Part shown: positions 60,942-62,283 of the stretch, piece after piece
How positions within the stretch are numbered: position 1 is the first letter of the stretch
How the letters are laid out: each line of letters begins with the position of its first letter
NCBI RefSeq assembly: GCF_030013595.1
Contig: NZ_CP122768.1
Strand: one strand, 5' to 3'
DNA from: Escherichia coli
GTDB taxonomy: Bacteria > Pseudomonadota > Gammaproteobacteria > Enterobacterales > Enterobacteriaceae
DNA length: 64,000 nt
The notes under the pieces: model-generated
What the model was told of the DNA's origin: nothing
Databases searched by the model: none
What the model saw: only the letters and a program-made list of their open reading frames with translations
Translations under genes and position numbers: made by a program

Positions 60942-62283
60942 CCCATAAGCGCTAACTTAAGGGTTGAACCATCTGAAGAATGCGACGCCTCGGTGCCTCG
61001 TTAAGACGATGCCTCGCGTTCTTCAATTGCGTTTTGTAGGCTGTCAGGGATACTGTCCCACGAATGGCCACCTGTAAGCTCCAGATGACCATTTTTGTTA
61101 TTCTCCACAACGAGTTAGTTCTTCTTTTCGGATCCGGCACTTCTGGGGGGAAATCCAGCGATGGCTGGATTATGTCGTCAATTAAAAATGCGGCGAGTAG
61201 ATTAGCAAATATCCACGCTTTCGCGAGTTCAGGTTCCTTTGCACGCAAAGCATCCAGGTGCAGCAAACTTTTGAGCCGCTTAAAAGCCAGTTCAATTTGC
61301 CATCGCAGACGGTAACAATCAGCCACTTGCTCTGCTGAATATTCATCTTCCGGTAATGATGTTAGCAATAGCACATGGCCCGCTGCTTCCAGCGTTTCCG
61401 CCTGAACTACTCGTCCTTTTCGACGATTCTCGCTGAGCAGTCGGGTTTTACTGATTAATGCTTTTTCGGGAGGAAGTGATACGGCAATGAGACGTGCCGG
61501 AAAGGGAGCTCCGGCTTTTTTATTACCTGAATTGCCTATCATTACAGTGGTTTCACCGTTCTTACCGCAATCCAGCCCGCGCAGAAAACCCATCATGTCA
61601 AAGCGCATTCCTTCTGCAGTTAACCAGCGCAATCCTCGCCAGTGAACCCGGACGATATAATCAGCTTCTCCAAAAGCAAGTGAGCGGATACATTCGGGAC
61701 GCGAACCGAATCCCCGGTCAGCAATGCGTATCTCGTCTGCCGTTTGCGCAAATCGGTCCAGCCGTTCAGCGTCTCTGCTGTCGGTTAGCTCAAAATCAGT
61801 GAACTGACAGGTATGAGGATCATATCCCATATGTAGTCGCCATTCAGCGCTGCCGCCCCCGGGCGCACTGATTGCTGTTCCATCGACAAGACGCAATCTC
61901 TTTCCGCTTGTACAACCCGTAACTGCGGCGCGTACAGCAAGTGTTTGTGCGGCAAGTATGCCAAACCAGTCGGCGGCATTCCGCAGCCGCTTCAGGAGAG
62001 CCACGTCAGATAATGTTGCAACGTCATGGAGCTGAGCCCATGCAGTGACTTCACGTAATGACATCCCCCCGGGGCCGTAAGCCAGCCCCAGACGTAGCAG
62101 AGTTGCAGCATCACGAATTTCGCGGCGGCGGGTTAGAGCCCCGGCATTACGTGCCGAAGTATCCAGTTCTTCGGGCTTACCAATATGGGCCAGAATTGCT
62201 GACCAGTTATCGTGAGAGTAATTCATCGGCACGTTAAATCATATCAGGCGTAATACCACAACCCTTAAGTTAGCGCTTATGGG
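60942..62283 (-). mobile_element. IS186 insertion sequence (about 1.34 kb)
   Basis: Terminal inverted repeats CCCATAAGCGCTAACTTAAGGGTTG (60942..) and CAACCCTTAAGTTAGCGCTTATGGG (..62283); GAGTGATCCCC-type G/C-rich flanks; encodes IS186 (InsL-type) transposase. Confidence 0.9.
60952..62226 (-). CDS. IS186 transposase with altered, extended C-terminus
   Basis: ORF MNYSHDNWSAILAHIGKPEELDTSARNAG... recognised as IS186 transposase up to ...SLDFPP, then continues 56 further codons (EVPDPKRRTN...) to within 10 bp of the IS end. Confidence 0.85.
   Translation of the reverse strand: MNYSHDNWSAILAHIGKPEELDTSARNAGALTRRREIRDAATLLRLGLAYGPGGMSLREVTAWAQLHDVATLSDVALLKRLRNAADWFGILAAQTLAVRAAVTGCTSGKRLRLVDGTAISAPGGGSAEWRLHMGYDPHTCQFTDFELTDSRDAERLDRFAQTADEIRIADRGFGSRPECIRSLAFGEADYIVRVHWRGLRWLTAEGMRFDMMGFLRGLDCGKNGETTVMIGNSGNKKAGAPFPARLIAVSLPPEKALISKTRLLSENRRKGRVVQAETLEAAGHVLLLTSLPEDEYSAEQVADCYRLRWQIELAFKRLKSLLHLDALRAKEPELAKAWIFANLLAAFLIDDIIQPSLDFPPEVPDPKRRTNSLWRITKMVIWSLQVAIRGTVSLTAYKTQLKNARHRLNEAPRRRILQMVQPLS

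Follow-up and report, generated by a model that had tools for sequence, protein, structure and literature searches.

The window analysed here, a 64,000-nucleotide stretch of an Escherichia coli contig (NZ_CP122768.1, assembly GCF_030013595.1), contains one copy of the insertion sequence IS186 (IS186/IS421), and we examined the transposase gene of this copy, whose C-terminal reading frame is set by a short G/C run. The element is complete, occupies 60944..62281 on the minus strand (1338 bp) and is inserted between dnaJ and mokC/hokC. It is bounded by perfect 23-bp inverted repeats, CATAAGCGCTAACTTAAGGGTTG, found solely at 60944-60966 and 62259-62281, and is bracketed by an 11-bp target duplication, GGGAGTGATCC. 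Both the repeats, which start with CAT, and the duplication, which falls within the range of about 10-13 bp, agree with IS4/IS186 membership, and the ends match the IS231-subgroup pattern CAT-------AA--TAA (PMC2266710). Over its 1338 bp, the copy matches those of many E. coli genomes at 100% identity, including the one at the same dnaJ site in the K-12 MG1655 assembly. The window itself is not K-12; among complete E. coli genomes, the best match to it has 98.8% identity.

The transposase open reading frame (60952..62232, minus strand) encodes 426 amino acids from a GTG start, or 424 from the ATG at 62226. Direct reading of the window gives cttct at 61140-61144, gggggg at 61145-61150 and aaa at 61151-61153, which confirms the six-base G run (G6) reported by the initial annotation; on the coding strand the junction reads GAT TTC CCC CCA GAA GTG CCG GAT CCG (D F P P E V P D P). 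When a seventh C is added, the reading becomes GAT TTC CCC CCC AGA AGT GCC GGA TCC GAA AAG AAG AAC TAA and the protein ends ...DFPPRSAGSEKKN* after 370 amino acids, as that annotation had stated. This is the length of InsL (RefSeq WP_001300563.1) at the dnaJ-mokC locus of strain KOr019, whose translation has the same C-terminus. The G6 and G7 products have 361 residues in common and then continue for 63 or 9 residues, respectively, so that the claimed extension of about 54 residues holds (424 - 370 = 54). The long frame also runs almost to the terminus of the element, as had been stated, since its TAG stop (60952-60954) lies inside the terminal inverted repeat. InsL is thus identical to the window product up to residue 361, and the element, its ends and its insertion site are as in K-12 IS186A, whereas the last nine residues of InsL are the frame-0 peptide RSAGSEKKN and the window product instead adds 63 residues in a conserved frame. 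The RSAGSEKKN tail is the frame-0 reading of DNA that encodes EVPDPKRRT in the +1 frame, and it exists in Escherichia only because AGA follows the run there in the zero frame; in a copy from Candidatus Erwinia dacicola, the closest non-Escherichia relative, this codon is TGA.

The YREK signature, Y-(2)-R-(3)-E-(6)-K (Y305-R308-E312-K319, YRLRWQIELAFKRLK), lies upstream of the run and is intact in both frames. The NCBIfam profile transpos_IS4_1 matches with 132.7 bits (cutoff 115) and stops at residue 350, and Pfam DDE_Tnp_1 matches residues 107-348 (E = 2.4e-26); profile-based annotation is therefore blind to what follows. The exact 424-residue protein is already deposited on 130 public contigs, and the NCBI Prokaryotic Genome Annotation Pipeline (PGAP) labels every six-C (C6) copy that we opened as frameshifted.

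The 424-residue protein was searched against a set of 5.8 billion proteins. Outside Escherichia, its closest relatives (57-71% identity, mostly from Alphaproteobacteria) are 361-368 amino acids long, and their alignments end at about 85% of the query. Longer relatives of 425-442 amino acids, about 41-43% identical, span 96-98% of the query, and the G6-frame tail aligns with their C-termini, with the common motifs SLWR, L..AI.G and L.EPPRRR..Q. Among six short relatives, five end exactly at ...D-S-P-P or ...D-S-S-P, where the run lies, and the sixth extends four residues further. The DNA of four independent short relatives (60-71% identical) shows what lies beyond: frame 0 ends ...TCT CCC CCC TGA (in one, TCT TCC CCC TGA), while the +1 frame opens at once into PPE...SLWRIVKML...AAIIG...RLNEPPRRR.PQMAQSLS*.

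A scan of one genome per bacterial or archaeal species yielded 79 loci, 31-96% identical, in which a hidden Markov model (HMM) of the C-terminal domain was scored on three-frame translations; the domain of the window copy scores 96 bits. In the 69 loci scorable by a YREK motif and a domain match, which come from many phyla, the domain is in the +1 frame relative to the core in 55, in frame in 13 and in the +2 frame in one. The window and the C6 MG1655 assembly belong to the in-frame group, together with a decayed copy from Erwinia dacicola, six loci from Pseudovibrio, three from Anaerolineae and one from Acetobacteraceae; at the junction, a C-run is absent from the Pseudovibrio and Anaerolineae loci. 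Within the +1-frame domain, synonymous differences exceed nonsynonymous ones (pS > pN) in every informative pair, with dN/dS of about 0.33-0.9 and mostly 0.35-0.6; the other two frames of the same DNA give mostly about 0.7-2.8. By these comparisons the domain is under purifying selection in the +1 frame, across lineages that are 31-71% identical. Deleting one C from the run produces continuous proteins of 414-449 amino acids in 24 lineages, and an alignment of 28 sequences shows no variation at W374 and R415 and almost none at P361, R375 and R413. The sequence evidence says that the G6 frame is the conserved full-length protein and the G7 tail a short out-of-frame read. This inverts the picture given by the initial annotation, in which the 370-residue protein was the complete transposase and the G6 frame an aberrant extension: the G6 tail is the conserved domain that 55 of 69 loci carry in the +1 frame.

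The in-frame state of long homologues was also considered as ancestral and rejected. Protein P0067 proved to come from an L027-type element with an allele shorter by one C, on a contig of about 4x coverage, and P0120 a one-T deletion; the run is truly absent only in Pseudovibrio, Anaerolineae and the L033/P0077 type.

An AlphaFold model of the 424-residue form, computed on the 28-sequence alignment, has a mean predicted local distance difference test score (pLDDT) of 81 and a predicted TM-score (pTM) of 0.79. In the model, a helix at residues 332-357 ends just ahead of the junction and is followed by a low-confidence linker, helices at 373-389 and 394-408, and a disordered basic tail. A fold search with this model returned Tn5 transposase as the sole significant match (E of about 5e-9 over about 490 columns, nearly full length); a sequence search of the Protein Data Bank gave no significant match, so Tn5 emerged from the fold search alone. 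Tn5 (IS50) likewise has an IS4-family YREK core with C-terminal helices past the last catalytic residue, although its sequence identity with the IS186 transposase is 13-15%. The C-terminal helices of Tn5 form the dimer interface of the synaptic complex. By analogy, those of IS186 may dimerise in a similar way, and the C-terminal domain may be needed for activity. Tn5 controls its own activity through an inhibitor that lacks the N-terminal part and comes from a second start, without any change of frame.

We collected 44 distinct cassettes of the +1 class to define the junction. The final CCC of the run is invariant (44/44) and is followed by T in 42 cassettes and by A in the other two, both Escherichia. 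The pyrimidine run measures 8-13 nt, with a mode of 10, and is exactly T5C5 in eight cassettes; thus a heteropolymeric TnCm run of about RNA-DNA hybrid length occupies the frame junction, with T3C7 in E. coli and T4C6 in E. albertii. An inverted repeat immediately precedes the run in most lineages, and its stem sequence differs from lineage to lineage, for example UCCAGC-CAUC-GCUGGA in E. coli, CCGGC-CCGC-GCCGG in L007, CCGGACC-GAC-GGUCCGG in L063 and CCAGGA-UU-UCCUGG in L043. The predicted minimum free energy of the hairpin is -8.6 kcal/mol for the C6 form of the window and -9.7 kcal/mol for the C7 form, at the 3rd percentile of windows from its own gene. When the 24 nt preceding the final 9 nt of each run were compared with windows of the same gene, 16 of 45 cassettes fell in the most stable 5% (about 2 expected), with a median percentile of 0.10.

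The arrangement resembles that of an IS630 element from Roseiflexus, the single case of stem-loop-stimulated transcriptional slippage that has been characterised by experiment. In the consulted part of a 2016 recoding review (PMC5009743), this element is described as having the inverted repeat GCGGGCgcaaGCCCGC directly 5' of T5C5, where RNA polymerase, including that of E. coli, yields one-C-short transcripts that encode the transposase; outside that context, according to the same part of the review, which summarises Penno et al. 2015, slippage on T5C5 is undetectable. As far as that account goes, the two systems share a T/C run near hybrid length and a constrained 3' neighbouring base, and in many lineages of the IS186 group a predicted GC-rich hairpin likewise lies directly 5' of the run. 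In the IS186 group, too, the downstream frame is reached by losing exactly one nucleotide, and the transposase would come from mRNA lacking one C. The differences are also clear. The Roseiflexus element belongs to IS630/Tc1-mariner, whereas IS186 is an IS4-family element with a Tn5-like DDE (YREK) core, and the IS186 shift parts a short C-terminal helical domain from this core. Additionally, many runs of the IS186 group are interrupted (e.g. TCTC6), E. coli has T3C7, and distant lineages have no hairpin.

Some cassettes deserve separate mention. Four loci from Bacillota/Proteobacteria metagenome-assembled genomes (L048, L049, L063 and L068) carry an exact hairpin-A-TTTTTCCCCC arrangement with stems of 7-8 bp (e.g. 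CCGGACC-GAC-GGTCCGG), the same motif as in the studied Roseiflexus IS630 cassette. In distant loci (L076, L079-L087, L042, L045, L048, L049, L055, L063, L065, L068, L070, L084), frame 0 after the run encodes a conserved SPWG[YF] or SPYGFP (DNA ...TCCCCCTGGGG...), while the +1 frame reads PPGD or PPGA, and both frames seem constrained for a few codons. Relative to L031, Paracoccus (L094-L096, protein P0120) has a natural single-frame allele that arose by loss of the T after a C6 run; P0120 is present on 13 contigs, the three places fetched represent three samples, and the upstream hairpin is a perfect 9-bp stem (GAGGCTGTC-GCC-GACAGCCTC). Candidatus Erwinia dacicola, an insect symbiont, has several decayed IS186-like copies (L015, L016, L018, L075; 74-83% identity) with in-frame stops and altered runs (C5-TGA, C7, C4-TC), which illustrate how the cassette decays in a dead element.

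We consider it likely, on balance, that IS186 is a member of a widespread IS4-family group in which the transposase is split at a conserved recoding cassette, with slippage as the probable means of joining the parts, and that the window copy is fused in its DNA. The cassette-bearing clade includes Proteobacteria, Bacillota, Acidobacteriota, Verrucomicrobiota, Planctomycetota and others. The proposal starts from what was observed directly, namely the conserved frame arrangement, the junction motif, the purifying selection on the +1-frame domain and the fold. Frame 0 would encode the N-terminal DNA-binding region and the catalytic core (residues 1-361, including YREK), and the +1 frame the C-terminal helical domain of about 63 residues. 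Standard decoding of ordinary IS186 (T3C7, 1339 bp) would then give the 370-residue InsL, and the 424-residue enzyme would require mRNA lacking one C. As the favoured source of such mRNA, RNA polymerase would slip forward on the run while the nascent hairpin forms, a mechanism suggested by the Roseiflexus analogy. The resulting one-C-short transcript would be equivalent to what the window DNA encodes, so that the window copy (T3C6, 1338 bp) would make the full-length protein directly from DNA and bypass the control. More tentatively, we suggest that the IS186 resident in K-12 makes an active 424-residue enzyme by programmed one-nucleotide recoding at the hairpin and T/C-run cassette conserved across this IS4-family clade.

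In its logic, the proposed system recalls the IS1 and IS3 families (InsAB', OrfAB), where standard decoding gives a truncated product and full-length transposase is limited by a low-frequency frame change. Frame-fused mutants of these families make full-length transposase constitutively. The known shifts in those families are -1 ribosomal events on A-rich heptamers that separate a DNA-binding OrfA from a catalytic OrfB, whereas the change proposed for IS186 goes in the +1 direction (equivalent to -1 nt in the mRNA) and takes place at a C-run, downstream of the catalytic core.

The main competitor to slippage is a programmed +1 ribosomal frameshift, in which peptidyl-tRNA-Pro would slip from CCC to CCU (CCA in Escherichia) next to a slow A-site codon, UGA or the rare AGA. 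Such re-pairing is permitted throughout, as the CCC is invariant and followed by U in 42/44 or A in 2/44 cassettes; the next zero-frame codon is TGA in 12/44 and AGA in 2/44, and one cassette with only C5 still has CCC_TGA. CCC_UGA is moreover an established +1 site in the tsh genes of the Listeria phages PSA, A118 and A500 and in E. coli pheL (compare CUU_UGA in prfB); the consulted part of the recoding review gives an efficiency of 15% at K-12 pheL and notes that the penultimate Phe matters (PMC5009743). The peptide at the IS186 shift site is F-P-P. In the first four relatives, CCC_TGA appeared compelling as proof of ribosomal frameshifting, but in the wider sample it is found in 12/44 cassettes only, and the TGA may simply follow from a conserved Glu codon in the +1 frame (T|GAR); the ribosomal reading was therefore demoted to a rival. 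Most IS186-group cassettes have an ordinary sense codon after CCC (28/44 with TGG, TGT, TGC, TAC, TAT, TCT or TCG; 30/44 if every cassette with neither TGA nor AGA is counted), and many have a predicted hairpin 5' of the run. A hairpin directly 5' of a hybrid-length T/C run fits the transcriptional precedent, unlike the Shine-Dalgarno-like 5' stimulator of +1 shifting in prfB (PMC3711429); no such stimulator was obvious by eye in the cassettes, where no formal scan was made. We thus favour transcriptional slippage and rank the ribosomal shift second, as a rather unlikely mechanism; the protein would be identical either way. A reading without any recoding, in which the 370-residue protein is the complete and sufficient transposase and the +1 domain a relic or a separate product from an internal start (e.g. 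M378), appears quite improbable. It accords with existing annotation, which gives the 370-residue product only and terms the long form frameshifted (PGAP), with the 44-46-residue open reading frames that gene callers report in the domain region of relatives, and with the NCBIfam and Pfam profiles, both of which end before residue 351. It does not account for purifying selection on the +1 frame across lineages that are 31-71% identical, nor for the contiguity of domain and core in several in-frame lineages, and the frame-0 tail past the run is variable in length and sequence, with an immediate stop in 12/44 cassettes. An internal start is further opposed by the invariant W374 and the nearly invariant R375, as both precede any internal Met, and by the lack of conservation of that Met.

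Several points weigh against recoding at a hairpin-driven slippage site. That ordinary IS186 probably needs recoding to make the full-length enzyme is read from comparison of DNA sequences, and it is formally possible that the 370-residue protein, the sole annotated IS186 product, suffices for transposition. C-runs of 5-7 slip less than long A/T runs unless the context helps, according to the consulted part of the recoding review (PMC5009743). The most distant loci showed no hairpin in the stability test, and the cassette sequences are phylogenetically related, which inflates nominal P-values. In a fixed-register covariation test of a 7-bp helix across the 44 cassettes, 51.9% of cells were paired against 46.5% in shuffles, a weak signal: 4 of 500 shuffles scored as high and one slid control had an equal covariation score. 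The marginal result reflects the fact that stem registers differ and that distant loci have no stems, and RNAalifold returned no consensus structure for the cassettes. The hairpin thus appears to be supported in many lineages and is not universal. The SPWG[YF] motif of the distant loci, which the proposed cassette leaves unexplained, may indicate another shift site or an extra signal there.

A frame split of this kind departs from the published description of the IS4 family, which lists the lack of a frameshift in the transposase gene as a hallmark (PMC2266710): ordinary IS186 and 55 of 69 related loci carry the domain in the +1 frame. This is no ground for excluding IS186 from the family. The GeneTack study reports three +1 clusters among DDE_Tnp_1 transposases, of which the only one detailed is 80% AT at the site; IS186 and IS4 are unmentioned in its main text and supplements, as far as these were available to us (PMC3711429), as they are in the consulted part of the 2016 recoding review (PMC5009743). 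Our literature search found no paper linking IS186 with transcriptional slippage; it covered neither ISfinder/TnPedia nor Penno 2015 and Sharma 2011, so an earlier description may exist. Within that scope, we could not find a description of a conserved recoding cassette in IS186 and its relatives.

The frequency of the six-base run in E. coli was assessed by a census with a 70-nt probe, sized so that a one-base indel drops the match under 99% identity. At least one exact C7 copy is present in 2591/2705 element-bearing E. coli records (95.8%), and at least one exact C6 copy in 144/2718 (5.3%); seven is the norm in E. coli IS186. Element lengths follow the run, with 1339 bp for C7 and 1338 bp for C6. 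IS186 of E. albertii is also 1339 bp long, with T4C6, which keeps the T+C total of 10 and hence the frame of C7. No sign of an intact C6 copy that had spread was seen among complete E. coli genomes. The initial annotation had named six-base runs in other IS186 copies and references as the observation that would speak against an anomaly in the window. Formally, such records exist, 144 in all and including the K-12 MG1655 assembly at the same locus, but sister assemblies contradict most of them, so that six is not shown to be a normal allele. C6 itself is a known polymorphism and is frequently mis-called.

The alternatives offered at the outset for the window, a sequencing indel or a real variant, remain the correct pair, and sequence alone cannot tell a real mutant from an assembly error at this site. 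We lean slightly towards the view that G6 is not in the real genome and is a homopolymer under-call that survived polishing in a repeated element, with the organism carrying T3C7 at the site. Comparison of assemblies repeatedly points this way. The O104:H4 cysH-cas3 copy measures 2001 nt in FDAARGOS_349 and 2002 nt in FDAARGOS_348 against 2003 nt in nine other O104:H4-labelled assemblies, and the O104:H4 entD-hokE copy is C6 in 2011C-3493 only, with C7 in C227-11 and FWSEC0009. The MG1655 assembly has C6 at this dnaJ locus, while W3110 matches a 100-base probe over 101 bases, as expected for C7. At the ltrA locus, C6 is confined to five assemblies with consecutive CP122xxx accessions, and each of the 26 other full-length matches has C7. 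KOr019, the closest genome with the same insertion, has C7. The O104:H4 copies and the CP122xxx series of enterotoxigenic E. coli (ETEC) were accordingly dropped as candidates for real C6 alleles, being contradicted by sister assemblies, and long-read assemblies appear often to mis-call the length of this run. On the other side, 43.9 kb of the window aligned to KOr019 contains 14 indels, of which the G-run is the sole uncompensated 1-nt indel inside a gene; the assembly is thus not generally error-prone. Polishing is, however, least reliable in repeated insertion sequence copies, so the clean unique background does not clear the element. One-base losses at the site do persist in nature, as in the Paracoccus fused allele and in pETEC_73-type plasmids with an inherited T loss. 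The latter copies (L101/L104) are diverged IS186 of about 97% identity with T3C6, against T4C6 in the sibling L103 (strain 90-9280), and their recurrence in 11 plasmids (E24377A and ten more) marks a truly inherited 1-nt deletion. The E24377A pETEC_73 copy was nevertheless rejected as a case of an intact fused allele inherited within E. coli, since besides its T loss it is truncated at the 3' end and is therefore a dead remnant.

If the proposal is correct, insL1-3 of K-12 and thousands of IS186/IS421 annotations describe a truncated by-product and not the enzyme, and annotation pipelines label the sole single-frame full-length form as a pseudogene; the one-base-short copies called frameshifted pseudogenes would represent the form with constitutive activity. 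A large clade of the IS4 family, to which Tn5 and Tn10 also belong, would restrict its transposase by recoding, and this would be the first case of recoding in a family characterised in print by the absence of frameshift. Slippage of RNA polymerase on a T/C run, driven by a hairpin, would also gain a second and far wider natural example, with dozens of natural cassette variants through which the mechanism could be studied in E. coli's own polymerase and host. If G6 is real, the window copy would make full-length transposase without recoding, and by analogy with frame-fused IS1/IS3 mutants a higher supply would be expected; the fused allele may thus be more active. In E. coli strains used in the laboratory and in production, IS186 is among the insertion sequences reported as gene disruptors. 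Gain or loss of one base in the run could toggle a copy between restrained and constitutive transposase, so that run length is worth careful genotyping. The features of the locus are collected in Table 1.

Table 1. Features of the IS186 copy and its immediate surroundings (window positions).
Feature	Position	Strand	Remarks
IS186 element	60944..62281	-	Inverted repeats, identity to other copies
Terminal inverted repeat, transposase-stop end (CATAAGCGCTAACTTAAGGGTTG), holds long-frame stop codon	60944..60966	.	
Terminal inverted repeat, transposase-start end	62259..62281	.	
Target-site duplication GGGAGTGATCC, left copy	60933..60943	.	Direct repeat
Target-site duplication GGGAGTGATCC, right copy	62282..62292	.	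Direct repeat
Transposase open reading frame of the window copy, 424 amino acids plus stop TAG 60952-60954	60952..62226	-	
YREK catalytic signature	61270..61314	-	
Putative slippery pyrimidine run T3C6 (G6 61145-61150 plus AAA 61151-61153)	61145..61153	-	T3C7 in ordinary E. coli, T4C6 in E. albertii
Predicted RNA hairpin UCCAGC-CAUC-GCUGGA (7 bp if 61153/61170 counted), directly 5' of the T/C run	61154..61169	-	
Conserved C-terminal domain, residues 362-424	60955..61143	-	In frame here, +1 in ordinary copies
dnaJ	62373-63533	-	

Toxin loci of the hok family recurrently adjoin IS186, in the window and also at L090, L091 and L092: the neighbour is mokC/hokC in the window (60679-60921), hokE at the entD site and a Hok/Gef gene at the cysH-cas3 site. 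In O104:H4, two IS186-hokE units are adjacent at entD. An association between IS186 and hok has been reported for the hok loci of K-12.

Further from the element, the segment between hokC and nhaA (57875-60149) holds a sulfatase-family gene and a gene for an OmpK-like outer-membrane protein, which are not in the K-12 arrangement and occur in some E. coli only. The stretch 47231-54136 (about 6.9 kb, rpsT to nhaR) is unalignable to KOr019, which has a major facilitator superfamily (MFS) transporter and a glycoside hydrolase family 31 (GH31) hydrolase there, and 17058-17686 likewise differs from that genome. Relative to KOr019, the window also has a 6-bp tandem duplication (AATATG AATATG) at 60152-60157, directly upstream of the start of the OmpK-like gene.

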